DNA of 64,000 nt, taken from a bacterium. GTDB lineage: Bacteria > UBP6 > UBA1177. The translations under genes were made by a program, and so were the position numbers. Location: the NCBI GenBank assembly GCA_017961325.1, contig JAGCXM010000015.1, positions 9,408-73,407 of the forward strand. Direction: 5' to 3'. The notes under the pieces are model-generated. The model searched no databases. It was not told where the DNA came from and worked only from the letters and a program-made list of their open reading frames with translations. Positions 30,224 to 39,159 of the stretch are shown here, piece after piece. Positions within the stretch are counted from its first letter, which is position 1, and the number at the start of each line of letters is the position of its first letter.

Positions 30224-30287
30224 CTCAACGAATACGAACACTCATTTTGAGGTCAAAAATTTTGACCTCAAAAAAACACGTTATTCG
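30224..30287. repeat. Repeat family A, copy 1 (about 64 nt; contains the perfect palindrome TTGAGGTCAAAAATTTTGACCTCAA)
   Basis: Near-identical to 31995-32057. Internal 12-nt inverted arms. Directly followed by a 29-nt partial copy of repeat B (30289-30317). Confidence 0.85.
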
Positions 30288-30369
30288 CCGTTTAAAGCGG
30301 TAAATTTTGTGATTTTGCAATTTGAGGAAGTGTCAAGAAAAAGTTAACTTCGACTATCTTAGATTGTTT

Positions 30370-30690
30370 TTATCTGCCGCTATGACAAATGACATCGTAA
30401 CTACCATTTTGACTCCTGTCAGCTTGGGAGACATATACTCTACAATCCTCGCTCACAGAAACCGCAAGACCTTCAAGAGTTATAAAAGTAGCATAAGGAC
30501 ATTTCAGATTTCTGGAAGCAAGCGTTCTTGCATTTGCTTTCAGTTCGTCAGCAGTAGCCAGATACCGATTGATAGAACGGCAATAATCCTTTGCATCTTG
30601 AAATGACATGCGAGTTCCTGGAATCGGGGATGCCGCGGTAAGAATTGCAAAGCAGAGAATAAAGAAAGAAAGCAAAAAAAATTTTTTCAT
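30370..30690 (-). CDS. Small secreted Cys-containing protein, DUF1566/Lcl-like fragment (paralogue 1)
   Basis: Start reassigned to MKKFFLL (signal peptide) with a GGAG RBS. YCRSIN..LATADEL resembles the DUF1566 motif. Paralogous to 30743-31051. Confidence 0.55.
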   Translation of the reverse strand: MKKFFLLSFFILCFAILTAASPIPGTRMSFQDAKDYCRSINRYLATADELKANARTLASRNLKCPYATFITLEGLAVSVSEDCRVYVSQADRSQNGSYDVICHSGR

Positions 30691-30742
30691 GTCAAATCTC
30701 CGTAAAAAATTATCATCATCAAATAATACCTTTTGAGATCTT

Positions 30743-31051
30743 CTATCTTCCGATGCAGACAGCCTGATAACTAGAACCTTCTTTTCCTGTTCCAAAAGCA
30801 CTCACAACACAATTACTTCCGAAAGAAACGGTTTGATTGTTTTCGCCTATAAAAGTCTGTGGAGCACAATTAGTCATTCCAGCTGCTTTCATAAGCGATA
30901 CCATCTCGTAGGTATATGCCAACCGCATATTGATACTGCGGCAATAATTTACAGCCTGTTGATATGTAACAGCTCTGGGAACAGGTTTTACAGCTGCCGA
31001 AAGTGTTACAAAACTGAAAACCAAAACAAAAACCAAGAAAAATTTTTTCAT
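30743..31051 (-). CDS. Small secreted Cys-containing protein (paralogue 2; tandem duplicate)
   Basis: MKKFFLVFVL signal peptide. Shares YCRSIN and a C-terminal SY.V.C..GR with paralogue 1. Upstream 30 nt nearly identical to that of paralogue 1 (catgtcaaatctcc). Confidence 0.55.
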   Translation of the reverse strand: MKKFFLVFVLVFSFVTLSAAVKPVPRAVTYQQAVNYCRSINMRLAYTYEMVSLMKAAGMTNCAPQTFIGENNQTVSFGSNCVVSAFGTGKEGSSYQAVCIGR

Positions 31052-31096
31052 GTCAAATCTCCTTAAAATAAGTTGTTAAAAATTCACCTTTTCAGG

Positions 31097-31492
31097 CTAT
31101 CTTACAAAAAACACAAAATGTTCTAAGTCAACGCAGCTTGGACCTTCATCACCTTCAACGAAACCTACTACCCACCTGCAGTCAGGGCGGCAGTTTTCAT
31201 CTGAAGAAGACCAAAAAGTTTTGGAAAGATCCAAACCGATGCAAACTTCTCGAATTTGATACAGATATTTAAGTTCTTCTTTTGTCGGAAGCCGCCAGTC
31301 AGAAAATCCGCCTATCTTAGAATTTTTAGCACACACTTCGGCAGCCTCCCAAGACATTTTGCCGTCGATTTTCGTAATCATTTTGATTTTGCCGATAGCT
31401 TCATTCAGTTCAATGTAATCGCCATGATCTTCAAAAATGTTTTTCACTATAACCTCAATTTGCAAATGAACAAAAAACCGATTTTCGGACAC
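31097..31492 (-). CDS. DUF1566-domain protein (Lcl C-terminal-like), no obvious signal peptide
   Basis: WEAAEVCAKNSKIGGFSDWRLPTKEELKYLYQ is the canonical DUF1566 'WRLPT..EL' motif. Confidence 0.6.
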   Translation of the reverse strand: MSENRFFVHLQIEVIVKNIFEDHGDYIELNEAIGKIKMITKIDGKMSWEAAEVCAKNSKIGGFSDWRLPTKEELKYLYQIREVCIGLDLSKTFWSSSDENCRPDCRWVVGFVEGDEGPSCVDLEHFVFFVR

Positions 31493-31994: not shown

Positions 31995-32057
31995 CTCAAC
32001 AAATACCAATACTCATTTTGAGGTCAAAAATTTTGACCACAAAAAACACGTTATTCG
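31995..32057. repeat. Repeat family A, copy 2
   Basis: About 90% identical to 30224-30287 including the palindromic core. Confidence 0.85.
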
Positions 32058-32117
32058 GAAAGGCCTTCCTTTCACAAACTACAAAATCAAGCTGAAAATG
32101 CTTTGAACAGATTGCAG

Positions 32118-32157
32118 ATTTTATACATTTTCGGAATCCGATTCCGAATTTGTATAA
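32118..32157. repeat. Repeat family C, copy 1 (40 nt; contains the palindrome TTCGGAATCCGATTCCGAA)
   Basis: Direct repeat of 33395-33434. The pair flanks the AAA ATPase gene. Confidence 0.8.
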
Positions 32158-32169
32158 AAATTTTGTCTT

Positions 32170-33384
32170 TTAGATTGCGTCAATCGGAATCAAGCTGTTC
32201 ATTCCATCAATAGGCAAGGTTGAACCTGTCATGCAGAGGATACAGCCTTTGCCAGCTTCAAAATTATTTAAATACCTGATTACGCTGAAATTTTTCAACA
32301 CTTCCCTGCCGGGATTTGCTGATTTTTTGATTTCAATCGGGAAAATTTTTCCGTTTTGGACGATAAGCAGATCTATTTCCTTTGAATTGTTGTCGCGATA
32401 GTAGCAAAGACGACTTCTAATGTCTATTCCTTTATTTGCGTAACTTTTTATTATCTCTGAAACGACATAAGTTTCGAACATCGCACCGGACATTGCCGAA
32501 AGTTCAAGTGCCCTCGGGTTGTTCCAAAAACTCAGATAACATGCAAGCCCTGTGTCCATAAAGTAAAGTTTCGGCCGTTTGACAATTCTTTTGACAGTGT
32601 TTGCCGAAAAGGGTGAAAGGAGAACAACTATCCCCGATGAAACAAGAACGGAAAGCCATTTGTCAGCAGTTTTTGAATCGATTCCAATCTCTTTCGAAAT
32701 ATCCGAAAGGTTAAGTTCCTGAGCTGTTCTTGCAGCAGCACACGATATGAATTTCAGGAATTTTTCTTCATCCTTTATGTTTATGAGATCGCGGATATCG
32801 CGCTCCAGATAAGTCTGCATATATGAACCGAAGTAGTCTTCCGGCAAAATTTCCCTGTCTACGGTAAGTTTGGGCATCCCGCCTCTGTAAATTTGCCCGA
32901 AAACTTCCGAAATTGTTCTTTTCTGTTCAAAAAACGGCACGTCATCAGGCAGAAAAGCCTTGGATTCCCTCCCGATTATTTCCGAATAACTCAGCGAAAA
33001 TAAAGAAAAAACTGCGACTCTTCCTGCAAGAGACTCGCTCACGTTCTTCATTGCGTGGAACATCTGGGAACCTGTCAGAAAATACTGTCCTGAAGCATTA
33101 TTTTTATCAACATTTATCTTGATAAAGGGCAGAAGTTCCGGCGCATATTGGATTTCGTCGATTATCAAAGGTGTTTTATACTGCTGGAGAAACAGCTCAG
33201 GGTCGCTCTTTGCAAGCTGTTTTAAAGCGGGATAGTCCAAAGTCACATAGTTTATTCCGCTTCTTTTTTCTGCGAACTCTCTGAGCAGAGTGGTCTTTCC
33301 GGTTTGTCTCGCTCCACAGACCATGATTACCGGGAAATGCTTTGAAAGTTCTTCAATTCTTGAAATTGCTGTCCGTTCGATCAT
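32170..33384 (-). CDS. AAA-family ATPase with C-terminal DUF4143 domain
   Basis: Walker A GARQTGKTTL and Walker B LLIIDEIQ. Typical AAA_14/DUF4143 architecture. Start reassigned to MIERTAIS, preceded by a GGAGGAA RBS. Confidence 0.7.
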   Translation of the reverse strand: MIERTAISRIEELSKHFPVIMVCGARQTGKTTLLREFAEKRSGINYVTLDYPALKQLAKSDPELFLQQYKTPLIIDEIQYAPELLPFIKINVDKNNASGQYFLTGSQMFHAMKNVSESLAGRVAVFSLFSLSYSEIIGRESKAFLPDDVPFFEQKRTISEVFGQIYRGGMPKLTVDREILPEDYFGSYMQTYLERDIRDLINIKDEEKFLKFISCAAARTAQELNLSDISKEIGIDSKTADKWLSVLVSSGIVVLLSPFSANTVKRIVKRPKLYFMDTGLACYLSFWNNPRALELSAMSGAMFETYVVSEIIKSYANKGIDIRSRLCYYRDNNSKEIDLLIVQNGKIFPIEIKKSANPGREVLKNFSVIRYLNNFEAGKGCILCMTGSTLPIDGMNSLIPIDAI

Positions 33385-33394
33385 GCTTCCTCCG

Positions 33395-33434
33395 ATTTTA
33401 TACATTTTCGGAATCCAATTCCGAATTTTTATAA
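33395..33434. repeat. Repeat family C, copy 2
   Basis: ATTTTATACATTTTCGGAATCC(A/G)ATTCCGAATTT(T/G)TATAA, matching 32118-32157. Confidence 0.8.
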
Positions 33435-33546
33435 TATTCAGCTTTTGAGAAAATGACAGAAAAATTTTCTTTTCCAATCTAAACAGGGGAAAATCTGCTG
33501 ATTTTTGAGGCCTGAATACGAAAAATCCAACTTGGAAATTTTTAGT

Positions 33547-33630
33547 TTACCACGGAACCGAGATAAGTCCGGTAAAACCCATGAATGCAAGTGAGAAAAG
33601 ACCTGCTGTGACGAGCGCAGTCGCCTTGCC
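33547..33630 (-). pseudogene. Orphan duplicated 3' terminus of rnfA (encodes ...[27 protein letters not shown])
   Basis: About 80% nt identity to 38572-38660. Translation matches the last 27 aa of RnfA. No upstream ORF continues it. Confidence 0.8.
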
Positions 33631-33728
33631 TCAAAACCATTCCCCGGAAATCCCGTTGCAGGCTTTTCAATAGTTTAAGATCGGATTTTCGACAGATCAT
33701 GCCGTTTAAAGCGGTAAATTTTGTGATT
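33629..33728. repeat. Repeat family B, copy 1 (about 100 nt)
   Basis: About 90% identical to 34599-34699. A partial copy lies at 30289-30317. Confidence 0.85.
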
Positions 33729-33743: not shown

Positions 33744-34037
33744 TCAGCTGTTTTGCGGAAGAAATTCTATTTTGAGTTTCATCCCCATCCCAATAGCCAG
33801 ACGCTGTAAAGTTCTAAGAGACGGATTTGCATTTCCTTTTTCAATTTTGCTGATGTCACCCTGCGCGATTCCGGTGCGCTCTGACAGTTCTTTTTGTGTA
33901 AGCCCTGACTGTTTGCGTGCATCAATGATTGCCTGAATCACGGCGTGTTCCGGCTGAAGCAGCTCGTATTCAGCCTTAAACTCGGGATTTTTCAGCTGTT
34001 CTTTGAGAAAATCATTAAACTTTTCGCCCATTTTCAT
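33744..34037 (-). CDS. higA: HigA-like XRE-family antitoxin
   Basis: HTH (LTQKELSERTGIAQGDISKIEKG). Overlaps and follows a HigB/Gp49-family toxin gene. Confidence 0.7.
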   Translation of the reverse strand: MKMGEKFNDFLKEQLKNPEFKAEYELLQPEHAVIQAIIDARKQSGLTQKELSERTGIAQGDISKIEKGNANPSLRTLQRLAIGMGMKLKIEFLPQNS

Positions 34038-34386
34038 CTCCGTTTCTACGCAAGTAATCGGCTCGGTATCTTTTTGCTTTTTCTATTTCTGCGACAGGAG
34101 TTTTCTGCGTTTTCTTGATAAAACCGTGAGTCAGCACGATCCGCCTGTCAACATAAAAGAAATAGAAAACACGCATTATATTTGTTTCGGCACGGGCTCT
34201 CAATTCAAAAATCCCGTCAGACAGATATTTCGAATAAGGCTCCCGTAAGTCGCAGCCGTTATCCTGCAGTATCGAAATCATGTCCGCCATTTTAGCCCTC
34301 ATTTTTACATCAAGTGACAAAAGAAATTCCTTTGCCGGCTGGCTGCCGTTCTCTTTTTCATAAAACTCGACTTCAAAACTTGTCAC
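34015..34386 (-). CDS. higB: HigB/RelE-superfamily toxin (phage Gp49-like, PF05973-type)
   Basis: 123 aa. Sequence pattern ...FELRARAETNIMRVFYFFYVDRRIVLTHGFIKKTQKTP of the Gp49/HigB family. Toxin-first order with an overlapping HTH antitoxin. Confidence 0.65.
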   Translation of the reverse strand: MTSFEVEFYEKENGSQPAKEFLLSLDVKMRAKMADMISILQDNGCDLREPYSKYLSDGIFELRARAETNIMRVFYFFYVDRRIVLTHGFIKKTQKTPVAEIEKAKRYRADYLRRNGDENGRKV

Positions 34387-34598: not shown

Positions 34599-34699
34599 CC
34601 TCAAAACCATTCCCCGGAAATCCCGTTGCAAGCTTTTCCGAGAGTTTAAGATCGGATTTTCGACAAATCATGCCGCTTAAAGCGGTAAGTTTTGTGATT
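34599..34699. repeat. Repeat family B, copy 2
   Basis: CCTCAAAACCATTCCCCGGAAATCCCGTTGCA...CATGCCGCTTAAAGCGGTAAGTTTTGTGATT, matching 33629-33728. Confidence 0.85.
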
Positions 34700-34733: not shown

Positions 34734-35870
34734 TTACTTTTCTTTAGGCGGATTATCTTTCAAAAATAAAAGACCTTTTGCATCAAGCCTGTCGTCATTG
34801 TCAAACGGAATCCCTGCTTCTTTCTTTTTACGCAGAAGTTCTTGCGTGTAATACGCAAGTACAGATATTTGAATTCTGAAAAGCTCGCACATCGTTTTTT
34901 CACGTGTTGCAATATTGCCTGTATCACGGTAGTTGAAACCGTAACAAGTCGGGCAGATATTCAAAAGAGAACAATCAGCACAGAAAGGATCTGTATTGAC
35001 TTCTTGAGAAGAAAAATCCATCTTTTCTTGTAATTCAGCAGCCTTTTGAGTTCCCAAAACCATTGGAGTGAAAAGATGGCATGGGTAAGTTTTTCCGTCT
35101 ACATCGTAAGTTATCATATGGGTTCCGGTGCCGCACCATTTTTGCTTGGGATTACGCTCAATTGTCAAAAGTCCTATTCTCCTTGCAAACATAGGTATTG
35201 TTTCAACATTTGGATGCTCCAAATAATAATCTGCCAAAATCATTAACTGCTTACGAAATTCTTTTTTATCTTCTTCAGACCAAACTTGACCGTATCCACA
35301 GTTTGCTGAAAAATTCTTAGCCCCCTTTTCTATCAAATAAATGACTCCTGAAGCTAAATTTTTCAATGAGTCAGGAGATATAGTCATCTTAGCTCCTTGT
35401 TCAGGATAAGTTTTAAGGAAAAAATCCAAATCGACTTTACTAGCACAATTTGTTCTGTTCATATCCTGCGATTCCTCAGTTCCATCGTAGCTTATACCAA
35501 CAACAAAACGCTCTTTATGCTTAACTAGCCATTGTTTGATTTCATCAGTAATAAGTGTTCCGTTAGTAGTCGTGAAAAAGATATACGGAACCTCCCATTT
35601 CTGCGACCAAGTCCACTCCATAATCTCTTTCATCAAATCGAACTTTACAAATGGTTCACCGCCCATGAAATCGAACTCAATTTCATCAAAATCCGGCGAG
35701 TTTTTAACAAACTCAAACTCTTTTGTGATAATTTCTTTAGCCAATTCAAGAAGCATATAATGTTCATCTTTATATTTTTCGTAACAATAAACACAATTCA
35801 AATTACAGGAATGAGTTATAACCAAAGTACAACTCCTATGCCTTGACGAACTATTTTTATTTGAACTCAT
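34734..35870 (-). CDS. Radical SAM enzyme with C-terminal SPASM domain (RiPP peptide-modifying maturase candidate)
   Basis: CNLNCVYC radical-SAM motif near the N-terminus. C-terminal Cys clusters WCGTG...C...CADCSLLNICPTCYGFNY typical of the SPASM/twitch auxiliary Fe-S domain. Confidence 0.75.
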   Translation of the reverse strand: MSSNKNSSSRHRSCTLVITHSCNLNCVYCYEKYKDEHYMLLELAKEIITKEFEFVKNSPDFDEIEFDFMGGEPFVKFDLMKEIMEWTWSQKWEVPYIFFTTTNGTLITDEIKQWLVKHKERFVVGISYDGTEESQDMNRTNCASKVDLDFFLKTYPEQGAKMTISPDSLKNLASGVIYLIEKGAKNFSANCGYGQVWSEEDKKEFRKQLMILADYYLEHPNVETIPMFARRIGLLTIERNPKQKWCGTGTHMITYDVDGKTYPCHLFTPMVLGTQKAAELQEKMDFSSQEVNTDPFCADCSLLNICPTCYGFNYRDTGNIATREKTMCELFRIQISVLAYYTQELLRKKKEAGIPFDNDDRLDAKGLLFLKDNPPKEK

Positions 35871-35943
35871 TTACTAACCTCTGAATTTTTACAAAAAGAG
35901 AGAGCCAAAGGTCTCTCAGAAAAAAGTGATTAAACAAACAAAA

Positions 35944-36138
35944 CTAACTCGGATGATTTAAATCCCAAGTATTCGAAAACCTGCAAGAATCTAAACATTC
36001 TCCTTGGCAAGTTCCTGCACAACCACCATAACAATCATCGCAAGCATAGGATTGCTGGTTCCCAACAGATTCATAAGATACCGAACCAGATGAAACAACT
36101 GAGTTCAGCAACTCGACATCGTAATTTACATTACTCAT
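35944..36138 (-). CDS. 64-aa precursor peptide with a six-Cys core (CDDCYGGCAGTCQGECLDSC), ranthipeptide/SCIFF-like
   Basis: Start set at the ATG preceded by a GGAGGG RBS. Leader-like N-terminal half, then a Cx2Cx3Cx3Cx3Cx3C core. Lies 73 nt upstream of the rSAM/SPASM gene on the same strand, with a hairpin in between. Confidence 0.6.
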   Translation of the reverse strand: MSNVNYDVELLNSVVSSGSVSYESVGNQQSYACDDCYGGCAGTCQGECLDSCRFSNTWDLNHPS

Positions 36139-36313
36139 CTTTCCCTCCATGAAAAAAAATTAATAAAACAAAAAAACGGTCTTTTGACCAAGATTACAAA
36201 ACAACAGTATTTCAAAAATTTTCAATTGTCAAATTTATCAATGCTTTTGTATTTTGCAAATACTTTGATATTGCTTTAGTTTACTTTGGTTGAACGAGCT
36301 AAGAGGTGAAATC

Positions 36314-36589
36314 ATGTTCGGAGACAGAGTAAAGCAGGTGCGTGAAGCTCATAATTACAGCCAAGTGCAGCTTGCGGCCATACTTCATGTCTCAAGACAG
36401 ACAGTCTCAAACTGGGAAAACAACAACATAATGCCGTCAATCGAAATGCTCATCAAACTTGCCGACCTGTTCGGTGTTTCAACTGATTTTCTGCTGGAGC
36501 GCGACAACCGCCGCTCTTTGGATATCACCGGTCTGACAGAGATCCAGTGCGCTCACCTTAATCTTATAATTCAGGATATTTTGCAGTAA
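36314..36589 (+). CDS. XRE-family HTH regulator, divergent from the RiPP pair
   Basis: QVQLAAILHVSRQTVSNWENNN HTH motif. Start at the ATG with an AGAGGTGA RBS. Confidence 0.7.
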   Translation: MFGDRVKQVREAHNYSQVQLAAILHVSRQTVSNWENNNIMPSIEMLIKLADLFGVSTDFLLERDNRRSLDITGLTEIQCAHLNLIIQDILQ

Positions 36590-36818: not shown

Positions 36819-37808
36819 ATGGAAAACGAAGTGATTTTATACACAGATGAAAACGGAAAAACAAATGTTTCTGTGCGTTTTGCCGATGAAGATGTATGGG
36901 TAACACAAGCTCAGCTTGCCGAGATTTACAACACGACACAGCAGAATATCAGCCTGCACATTGATAATATTTACAGAGATGATGAACTGCCGGAAACGGC
37001 AACTCACAAGGATTTCTTGTTAGTTCAAAAAGAAGGCACTCGCAATGTAAAGCGTAATATTTCACATTACAATCTCGATATCATTATTGCTCTCGGCTAT
37101 CGAGTTCAGTCGGATGTTGCAGTGCGCTTCCGCCGTTGGGCGACTCAAAGACTTCACGAGTATATTCAGAAAGGCTTTGTTATGGATGACGAGCGGCTCA
37201 AGCAGGGGCGGAACCGTTATTTTAGGGAACTTCTGCAGAGAATACGCGATATCCGTTCAAGCGAGCGCAATTTTTATCAGCAGGTTACTGATATTTATGC
37301 TACTGCGACAGATTACGATCCGCGCTCGAAAACAACGCTTCATTTTTTCGCAACAGTGCAGAATAAACTTCATTATGCTGTACATGAACATACAGCGGCG
37401 GAATTGATTTATGAGCGGGTTGACAGTGAAAGGCCTTTTGTCGGCATGACAAATTTTAAGGGGGATTATGTTACAAAAGATGATGTGAAAATAGCGAAAA
37501 ACTACCTTTCTGAAGTCGAATTGCAGCGTCTGAATCTTCTCGTTTCGGAATTCTTGGATTTTGCGGAATTTCAGGCACTTGAAGAAAAACCCATGAAAAT
37601 GCAGGATTGGATCAAAGCTCTTGACAATCAGATAATAGCACATCAGCGCAAAATTCTTGAGGGAAAAGGCTCTGTCAGCCACGATCAGGCAATGAGAAAA
37701 GCTGAAAAGGAATACGAACTTTTCCGTAAGAAACAGCTGGCAAATCTTAAAAGTGACTTCGATTTATTTTTGAAAGACGTAAAAAGTCTAGAGAAATCCG
37801 AGAAATAA
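36819..37808 (+). CDS. RhuM-family virulence-associated protein
   Basis: N-terminus ILYTDENGKTNVSVRFADEDVWVTQAQLAEIY and overall about 330 aa match the RhuM family (PF13310). Confidence 0.65.
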   Translation: MENEVILYTDENGKTNVSVRFADEDVWVTQAQLAEIYNTTQQNISLHIDNIYRDDELPETATHKDFLLVQKEGTRNVKRNISHYNLDIIIALGYRVQSDVAVRFRRWATQRLHEYIQKGFVMDDERLKQGRNRYFRELLQRIRDIRSSERNFYQQVTDIYATATDYDPRSKTTLHFFATVQNKLHYAVHEHTAAELIYERVDSERPFVGMTNFKGDYVTKDDVKIAKNYLSEVELQRLNLLVSEFLDFAEFQALEEKPMKMQDWIKALDNQIIAHQRKILEGKGSVSHDQAMRKAEKEYELFRKKQLANLKSDFDLFLKDVKSLEKSEK

Positions 37809-37952
37809 CCTGCCTCAACCAGTTATCAAGTCGGCCAACCCATGAATGCAGGTGCGTGAGGCACATAATTACAGTCAGGTGCGACTTGCAACTCGGCTCC
37901 ATGTTTCCAAACAGGCAGTCTCGAACTGGGAAAACAACAACATTATGCCGTC
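37803..37952. pseudogene. Junction remnant: a degenerate third copy of the rnfA 3' terminus (37803-37848) joined to a truncated duplicate of the XRE gene from 36334-36441 (37849-37952)
   Basis: ...AAGTCGGCCAACCCATGAATGCA matches the rnfA-end repeat. It is followed immediately by an approximately 85%-identical copy of the HTH gene, starting internally at ...VREAHNYSQV. Confidence 0.7.
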
Positions 37953-37967
37953 AATCGAAGTCGGAAG

Positions 37968-38571: not shown

Positions 38572-39159
38572 CTACCACGGAACTGCGATGAGTCCGGTGA
38601 AGCCCATGAATGCGAGTGAAAGAAGGCCGGCGGTGACAAGTGCGATCGGTGCGCCTTTCATTGCTTCGGGGATTTCGTAAAGCTCAAGGCGTTCCCTGAT
38701 CCCGGCAAAAATTACGAGTGCCAGGAAGAAGCCGAGAGCGGTCGCGATGGTGTAAACAACGCTCTGAAGAAGGTCGTAGTTTTTCTGAGTTACGAGGATC
38801 GCGACACCAAGAACAGCGCAGTTGGTCGTGATGAGAGGAAGGAATACGCCGAGAGCCTGATAAAGCGGCTGCGAAACTTTTTTCAGAATGATTTCAACCA
38901 TCTGCACAAGTGCAGCGATGACAAGGATGTATGCGACCGTCTGCATGAAACCGATGTTGAGCGGGATCAGGACGAGGTTGTAAAGCAGCCACGTGACTGT
39001 CGTAGCCAGGGTCATGACGAAAAGGACTGCCGCGCCCATGCCGACCGAAGTCGAAACTTTGTTCGAAACGCCGAGGAAGGGGCAGATTCCCAGAAACTGC
39101 GCAAAAACGATGTTGTTGACAAGTATCGCGCTTATGAAAACAAGAATATATCCAGTCAT
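38572..39159 (-). CDS. rnfA: Rnf electron-transport complex subunit A
   Basis: 195 aa, 6 TM helices, [11 protein letters not shown] motif. Confidence 0.85.

Follow-up and report, generated by a model that had tools for sequence, protein, structure and literature searches.

A stretch of 64,000 nucleotides from an uncultured UBP6 bacterium (lineage UBA1177; GenBank assembly GCA_017961325.1, contig JAGCXM010000015.1, positions 9,408 to 73,407), called the window below and providing all coordinates that carry no other label, contains a short gene for a cysteine-rich peptide followed on the same strand by a gene for a radical S-adenosylmethionine (SAM)/SPASM enzyme. We read this locus as a minimal two-gene cassette for a peptide that is ribosomally synthesized and then post-translationally modified (RiPP), of the Cys-X-X-X-repeat type, in which the enzyme would cross-link the peptide through thioethers, and we assign this reading a probability of roughly 0.7. 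The pairing of a leader-core precursor with a maturase had been proposed in an initial annotation made from the sequence alone and is supported here by comparison with related loci; the SCIFF-like identity proposed together with it is not. The features of the locus are collected in Table 1.

The precursor open reading frame (ORF) of 64 residues was found as previously described, with a GGAGG ribosome-binding site (36148-36144) located 5 nt upstream of its ATG at 36138. An alternative reading of 68 residues would start at an ATG (36150) that falls within this ribosome-binding site, and the related peptides begin with MSN or MTN. The product comprises a leader of about 32 residues, a cysteine core (residues 33-52) and a 12-residue follower. 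The core has the Cx2Cx3Cx3Cx3Cx3C arrangement already reported, and a run of six cysteines spaced by two or three residues was met only once across all reading frames of the window, and 100 block shuffles produced no such run. The peptide is listed at NCBI as a hypothetical protein (MBP5406172.1, locus-tag prefix J6Z19). In profile searches, the SCIFF model TIGR03973 gave no match to the precursor at E <= 1 and the sole matches were to CXXX-repeat models. TIGR04114 (CXXX repeat) scored 16.7 bits on the window peptide, which contains four consecutive CxxxC units, against a cutoff of 20 that was exceeded by longer paralogues (22.2 bits for peptide L083c and 27.6 bits for L014). The Pfam search assigned the peptides to no family, with a Pfam copy that lacked PF27846, the precomputed tag on paralogue P0124. 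The leader is rare, being shared by 4 clusters among 5.8 billion proteins, and represents a new leader family.

The conservation of the peptide and of its association with the enzyme was assessed on two sets of loci. Five metagenomic loci (L001 to L085 in our numbering) contain close relatives of the enzyme, with identities of 96% (L081 and L082), 89% (L083), 80% (L085) and 73% (L001); the distant set consists of 38 loci from named genomes, whose enzymes are 32-48% identical. All five close relatives carry precursor genes upstream of the enzyme gene and on the same strand, from one to three each: a single copy in L081 and L001, three in tandem in L083 and two very long ones in L085. The small ORF thus has a counterpart beside the enzyme gene in each of the close relatives that were examined. 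Its leader is nearly invariant and retains the form (Y/F)D(V/I/T)(E/D/N)LLN(S/L)(V/I)(V/I), in a divergent version in L085. Leader codons differ from those of the window with synonymous to nonsynonymous ratios of 7:2 (L081), 5:1 (L083b) and 7:1 (L083c), and on these counts the leader is under purifying selection. The cores are hypervariable in sequence and in length within the close clade, with 4 to 37 cysteines, and 83 of their 96 cysteine intervals are of the CxxxC type, with the consensus C-[SYAE]-G-[SGT]. A same-strand ORF with a cysteine cluster lies within 400 nt of the enzyme gene in 25 of the 38 distant loci, and the density of such ORFs beside the enzyme is 6.4 times that found elsewhere in the same loci. 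Clustering of all neighbouring ORFs across loci revealed no further conserved partner (protease, exporter or RiPP recognition element (RRE) protein). Clade-specific additions were observed, namely a ClpP-like protease with an ABC exporter in Sporomusa and Selenomonadaceae and a YcaO gene in Bacteroidales, which fit RiPP pathways. Taken at the level of sequence, these comparisons show that the small ORF is a real gene under selection, with a conserved leader of about 32 residues and a hypervariable, cysteine-periodic core, and that in the close relatives a stand-alone radical SAM/SPASM enzyme is encoded with it on the same strand in every case.

Comparison of the window with L081 at the DNA level located the variable part more precisely. 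The two sequences are 85-95% identical over the regulator gene, the leader, the enzyme gene and the repeat downstream of it, and homology is undetectable over the core and the spacer (35845-36064). The window core allele is closer to that of L083b than to the corresponding segment of L081. Since homology with L081 vanishes exactly there and the window allele resembles L083b, the core is a mosaic, fast-changing segment.

The second gene also agrees with its earlier description as a radical SAM gene placed 73 nt downstream, with a CNLNCVYC motif and a cysteine-rich SPASM tail: the gap is exactly 73 nt (35871..35943) and the product has 378 residues. All 33 homologues compared have the three cysteines of the CX3CX2C motif (C22, C26 and C29), and seven further cysteines (C246, C264, C297, C300, C306, C309 and C328) are invariant or nearly so among them. 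The enzyme is predicted to bind the radical SAM cluster and auxiliary clusters through the CX3CX2C motif and the SPASM cysteines. Because seven auxiliary cysteines are conserved and not eight, one auxiliary cluster would have only three protein cysteine ligands. Pfam detected Radical_SAM (30.8 bits, cutoff 29.5) and Fer4_12 (27.7 bits, cutoff 22). Among the curated maturase models, the highest score was obtained with TIGR04115, the CXXX-repeat-target maturase, aligned over profile positions 2-359 of 359 (150.9 bits, cutoff 350), followed by the full-length match to the PapB model NF047865 (146.4 bits, cutoff 340). The SCIFF maturase model TIGR03974 covered residues 8-154 only (99.7 bits, cutoff 425) and the model of anaerobic sulfatase maturases (anSME), TIGR03942, only residues 19-144 in the N-terminal half (62.6 bits, cutoff 349), while TIGR04119 gave no more than a faint match of 43.3 bits, located in the SPASM half of the enzyme itself (cutoff 150). 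None of the 33 homologues approached any of these cutoffs, the best E-value with TIGR04115 being 2e-47. At least 1,400 clusters at 90% identity match the enzyme, which belongs to a large, deep-branching SPASM group that lacks an RRE and is placed in no curated family. The metagenome-assembled genomes of this clade are labelled as Treponema, Bacteroidales, several Bacillota families, Opitutales, Kiritimatiellales, Thermoguttaceae and Synergistales, and the clade also includes one unverified phage contig.

The best solved relative by family profile was CteB, the ranthisynthase of SCIFF/thermocellin (5WGG, 133 bits), with an alignment that begins at CteB residue 92, indicating that the enzyme has no N-terminal recognition domain; its CX3CX2C motif begins at residue 22, with no domain of about 90 residues ahead of the radical SAM core. 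The AlphaFold model (predicted local distance difference test score 91.4) gave fold matches ranked CteB, anSME and ChlB, the first two over about 370 columns. Six active-site positions have been named in CteB (PMC10288494). They are occupied by F, F, T, S, H and Q in CteB, by Y30, M69, T101, S127, H265 and L266 in the window enzyme as aligned, and by F, Q, Q, S, D and F in anSME, so that three of the six are identical between the window enzyme and CteB. The scores and the rank of CteB support the grouping of the enzyme with RiPP thioether maturases and not with anaerobic sulfatase maturases, in line with the initial annotation.

Judged by its pattern and best match, the nearest catalogued class is that of the CXXX-repeat peptide systems, which were defined by comparative genomics and comprise a TIGR04114 peptide, a TIGR04115 radical SAM maturase and a second maturase domain, TIGR04119. 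Our literature searches found no published chemistry, structure or function for this class. The window shares with it a peptide whose C-terminal part has a cysteine at every fourth residue with small residues between, an adjoining same-strand SPASM radical SAM gene with TIGR04115 as its top, full-length model, and long paralogues of the peptide that exceed the TIGR04114 cutoff. It also differs in several respects. The enzyme and its homologues remain far under the TIGR04115 cutoff, and a bona fide member (Anaerococcus prevotii pAPRE01) is a 728-residue fusion with TIGR04119, only 27% identical to the window enzyme, with a CxxxC peptide adjacent and an ABC transporter following. In contrast, the window enzyme stands alone, with neither a TIGR04119 partner nor a transporter nearby, and the leader family is distinct and rare.

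In its mode of action the cassette would come closest to PapB and CteB, thioether synthases that work iteratively. PapB joins the cysteine sulfur to the C-beta of Asp or the C-gamma of Glu and tolerates Cys-Xn-Asp motifs with n = 0-6 (PMC9413430). The PapA/PapB system of Paenibacillus polymyxa, which yields the ranthipeptide freyrasin, resembles the window in having a repeat-type core and a single SPASM enzyme, which in the window would also act iteratively; the PapB model is the second best for the window enzyme. However, Cys-X3-Asp is absent from the window core, where the residue four positions after each cysteine is the next cysteine and acidic residues occupy positions i+1, i+2 or i+3, and many repeats in the relatives contain no acidic residue. 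The four acidic residues of the window core could in principle serve as PapB-type acceptors. The SCIFF system CteA/CteB (thermocellin) is likewise a two-gene cassette, with a six-cysteine core that opens with Cx2Cx3Cx3Cx3C, and it provides the closest solved structure. The window departs from it by the low TIGR03974 score of its enzyme, by a 64-residue peptide unmatched by the SCIFF model and with an unrelated leader, by the lack of an N-terminal RRE-type domain and by a core that is hypervariable where that of SCIFF is highly conserved. A true SCIFF peptide in locus L045, CGECQTSCQSACKTSCGIANQTC, reads Cx2Cx3Cx3Cx3Cx6C; the difference in cysteine spacing claimed previously is thus restricted to the last interval (x3 instead of x6), the first five cysteines being spaced identically. 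The true ScfB enzymes of L045 and L046 have 463 residues, including a supplementary N-terminal domain of about 95 residues, are 26-27% identical to the window enzyme and score 696 and 774 bits on TIGR03974. With the PapB model their scores are about 270 bits, indicating that the characterised thioether synthases are closer to each other than to the present clade.

On this basis, we propose the following course for the putative thioether cross-linking. Lacking an RRE domain, the enzyme would bind the leader directly. Cleavage of SAM would generate a 5'-deoxyadenosyl radical that takes a hydrogen from a core residue, and the resulting carbon would be joined to a cysteine sulfur held at the auxiliary cluster with three protein cysteine ligands. 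In CteB, the first auxiliary cluster reportedly has an open site that accepts a substrate cysteine. Repetition along the C-x-x-x units would lead to a compact poly-thioether of the sactionine or ranthionine type, with at most one link per cysteine.

Several observations weigh against this proposal. The enzyme reaches no more than 100-150 bits on the models of characterised thioether synthases, and the transfer of function is weak because its clade is remote from every one of them. Many repeats in the relatives lack Asp, Glu and Thr (for example CSGSCKGSC in L014), which implies that a PapB- or CteB-type acceptor is not general. Moreover, the cassette contains no RRE, protease or transporter, the hairpin between its two genes is weak and missing from some relatives, and the -10 element of the candidate precursor promoter agrees with the consensus at 3 of 6 positions and was not called by a scan for promoter-like sites.

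The same precursor-enzyme pair might instead support chemistry other than thioether formation, such as an anSME-like conversion of cysteine into formylglycine or thioaldehyde by oxidation, epimerisation, C-C or C-O bonds formed with the frequent Tyr, Ser or Thr residues, or the tuning, by modification, of a peptide that binds metal in the manner of a metallothionein. The deep branching of the clade under all curated cutoffs and a C-x-G-S repeat consensus with no conserved acidic acceptor favour this view. So does the size of some relatives' precursors (143-209 residues with up to 37 cysteines, one of them with a C-terminal hydrophobic helix), which resemble modified proteins more than classic small RiPPs. 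In addition, anSME is the second-best fold; it too lacks an RRE, has about 370 residues and a SPASM fold, and acts on a cysteine within a peptide chain. However, the best full-length matches in sequence and structure are to thioether synthases, the anSME model covers the N-terminal half only, and the window enzyme has a His, as does CteB, where anSME has the Asp of its 'PCD' motif (PCDFY). The auxiliary cysteines number seven and not eight, the additional one lying ahead of the conserved 'PC' in anSME. We regard a non-thioether modification as unlikely. A bolder and still less probable proposal is that the clade performs a chemistry undescribed so far on CxxxC repeats and that the cores, which would then be hypervariable and recombining elements housed in genomic hotspots of the defence type, serve in strain-level antagonism or phage defence. 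One example of such a chemistry would be a regular ladder of very small rings, added iteratively to substrates that have 4 to 37 cysteines, with acceptors that are not necessarily acidic.

We consider it highly improbable that the small ORF is incidental and that the enzyme has another substrate, whether sulfatase, cofactor or small molecule. The public records leave room for this idea, the 340-residue call of the enzyme being unannotated and the peptide 'hypothetical', but the conserved pairing, the selection on the leader and the tandem precursors of the relatives contradict it, and neither a sulfatase gene in the island around the enzyme nor cofactor genes nearby were found. An anSME-like enzyme outside RiPP biosynthesis was likewise rejected on its scores (62.6 versus 349 bits) and its genomic context. 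The least probable alternative is a canonical SCIFF (ScfA/ScfB) system, suggested by the six cysteines, the spacing of the first five and the two-gene layout with no transporter, and ruled out, as far as family membership goes, by both hidden Markov models and by the comparison with true ScfB loci.

The thioether-forming cassette that we favour would probably be transcribed from a promoter overlapping that of the divergent regulator gene. The -35 element of the candidate precursor promoter overlaps the -35 element of a plus-strand promoter-like site (36226-36255) of the XRE gene, and the promoter block is kept in the window, in L081 (-10 TATTAT) and in L090, a locus from a related strain (-10 TACTAT). 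The XRE regulator announced by the initial annotation is present, its likely true start being the ATG at 36314. A perfect inverted repeat, a candidate operator of the regulator, overlaps the -10 element of the XRE promoter. The same XRE gene adjoins the cassette in L081. The spacer between regulator and precursor is kept in L081 and L090, but in L090 the regulator and spacer face a different gene, encoding an Lcl_C protein, so that the regulator is not exclusive to the cassette.

The stem-loop between the two genes, previously placed at 35895-35915, exists but spans 35917-35898 on the minus strand. Its predicted stability is low (about -9 kcal/mol) and the 91-nt intergenic stretch folded no better than shuffled sequences (z = +1.2). 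Terminator-like hairpins with a T-run, of unrelated sequence, follow the precursor genes of L081 and L083 (copies a and b). They are absent after the precursors L083c, L085b and L001, and the L083c and L085b genes abut the enzyme gene directly. The attenuator function suggested earlier is plausible, though not universal: by acting as a partial terminator after the precursor gene, it would keep precursor mRNA above enzyme mRNA. A search of the intergenic regions for known RNA elements returned a single sub-threshold chance match, inside the neighbouring RhuM gene.

Table 1. Features of the cassette and its immediate surroundings (window coordinates).
Feature	Position	Strand	Basis or remark
Radical SAM/SPASM peptide maturase gene, 378 residues, no RRE domain	34734..35870	minus	NCBIfam/Pfam, CteB profile match, AlphaFold
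SPASM region, seven conserved cysteines	34887..35135	minus	Alignment; matches CteB auxiliary-cluster region
CNLNCVYC, CX3CX2C, residues 22-29 (SAM-cleaving [4Fe-4S] cluster)	35784..35807	minus	
Stem-loop GAGAGACCTTTGGCTCTCTC followed by TTTTTG, candidate partial terminator	35892..35917	minus	Hairpin proper 35917-35898
Precursor gene, 64 residues, MSNVNYDVELLNSVVSSGSVSYESVGNQQSYACDDCYGGCAGTCQGECLDSCRFSNTWDLNHPS	35944..36138	minus	ORF and sequence
Core CDDCYGGCAGTCQGECLDSC, six cysteines, Cx2Cx3Cx3Cx3Cx3C	35983..36042	minus	
GGAGG ribosome-binding site of precursor	36144..36148	minus	Read from sequence; kept in L081 and L083
Candidate sigma-70 promoter of precursor	36204..36232	minus	-35 TTGACA 36232-36227, 17-nt spacer, -10 TACTGT 36209-36204
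Inverted repeat GTATTT-TGC-AAATAC, candidate XRE operator	36249..36263	none	Half-sites kept in L081 and L090
Divergent XRE/Cro-CI-type helix-turn-helix regulator gene, 91 residues	36314..36589	plus	Pfam HTH_3, 69.6 bits
96-nt repeat element with hairpin (34673-34685), marks cassette boundary	34604..34699	none	Just downstream of enzyme gene

The survey of related loci yielded further observations on the two gene families. Two long homologues of the precursor type, with 19 and 37 cysteines (143 and 209 residues), were located at L085 670-1099 and 1145-1774 and at L084 1-303; public gene calls misframe these genes into Val/Ala-rich products. In L001 (171-2384), a second radical SAM gene, encoding 426 residues with an N-terminal extension, lies directly upstream of the orthologous cassette and is followed by three Cys/Asp-rich peptides with another leader (MTISEIIEL...), making two tandem cassettes. 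A Bacteroidales sub-clade (L009 5134-5645, L010, L013, L015, L022, L023, L030 and L033) has short precursors ending in the conserved core C-x-x-C-G-x-G-C-x-G-[IT]-V-G-[DM], in three copies in L009, with a YcaO gene near five of these loci. On L094 (MT836223.1, 678-2087), an unverified human-gut 'bacteriophage' contig, a 46% identical enzyme comes directly before a precursor, MKMNLEALNALEQKLAEYSKVNG...CTDCYQTGGGGCKGTCRGTCGGSCNGR, whose leader is of the type found in Selenomonadaceae loci. The plasmid collection gave a single distant match, on a Phocaeicola plasmid (38%). Together with the phage contig, this is insufficient to support a plasmid- or phage-borne family. Finally, the public gene call of the enzyme (L087 13404-14426) is a 340-residue protein starting at Met39; it lacks CX3CX2C and has no recorded Pfam match, and the full 378-residue sequence is absent from the protein collection. 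Because this call starts late and misses the radical SAM motif, annotation-based mining may overlook the locus.

The cassette lies in an island of about 30.1-38.5 kb, flanked by a TIGR03960 radical SAM gene on one side and the rnf operon on the other, with a GC content of 35-43% compared to about 50-53% in the adjacent flanks (28-30 and 38-42 kb). In the related strain (L090 and L091), which shares an RnfC cluster at 90% identity with the window, the same flanks enclose other cassettes, comprising RelB, an SLFN-type ATPase and the toxin-antitoxin pair that the window also has, with neither the peptide nor the enzyme. The region was earlier called a mobile island. Neither an integrase nor a transposase was found there, and the term accessory hotspot, strain-variable and low in GC, suits it better. 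The neighbours of the cassette in the window are a Gp49/HTH toxin-antitoxin pair (33744-34386), an AAA_14/DUF4143 ATPase (32170-33477; PADLOC candidate PDC-S01, 348 bits) and a RhuM-family protein (36819-37808; PADLOC candidate PDC-S05, 467 bits). With this gene content, the island looks like a defence-type hotspot.

The repeat that marks the cassette boundary contains the hairpin GCCGYTTAAAGCGGTA and has further copies at 33633-33728 (up to 96 nt) and, partially, at 30287-30316, located at the edges of island gene modules; it occurred 0 times in shuffles. It also follows the radical SAM gene in L081, though the next gene there differs. An integron-type cassette was rejected, as single-stranded DNA folds of both strands showed no attC-like long hairpin (z from -0.9 to +1.2) and the island yielded no integrase. 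The repeat may terminate transcription in both directions or serve as a site of recombination. Other sequence remnants were noted in the island. A 76-nt remnant of the rnfA 3' end (33548-33623), 80% identical to the true end 5 kb away (38573-38648), adjoins the toxin-antitoxin module and is also found in L090 (11562-11647), suggesting past insertions through recombination at the rnfA end. The 5' portion of the XRE gene (36331-36445) recurs in truncated form beyond RhuM (37845-37959; 83% identical, and 92% to the L081 allele), as though recombination within XRE genes had brought in RhuM or the cassette. The DUF4143 ATPase gene is bracketed by a 41-nt direct repeat (32117-32157 and 33394-33434, 95% identical) with the internal palindrome TTCGGAATCCGATTCCGAA. 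A 29-nt palindrome, TTTTGAGGTCAAAAATTTTGACCTCAAAA, is present at 30245-30273 and 32016-32044, each time within a direct repeat of 53 nt, and probably acts as a bidirectional terminator common to the modules. Three small paralogous genes for secreted or lipoprotein-like products, one with an Lcl_C domain, occupy 30370-31492 and have duplicated upstream regions (30632-30707 and 30993-31068); in L090 these same genes adjoin the XRE regulator that faces the precursor in the window.

Pairs of radical SAM/SPASM enzymes and cysteine-rich peptides have repeatedly given new cross-links, among them the sactionine, ranthionine, PapB, CteB and NxxcB links. With a 64-residue, six-cysteine precursor and a 378-residue enzyme, the present cassette is the smallest test case of the CXXX-repeat class, and it should be easy to co-express since it consists of one small precursor and one enzyme with no RRE, partner domain or transporter. 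Its close relatives constitute natural substrate variants with 4 to 37 cysteines behind the same leader, which bear on how an enzyme lacking an RRE recognizes its leader and processes a periodic core. The cassette is thus less a surprise than a tractable entry to a catalogued, biochemically uncharacterised class.

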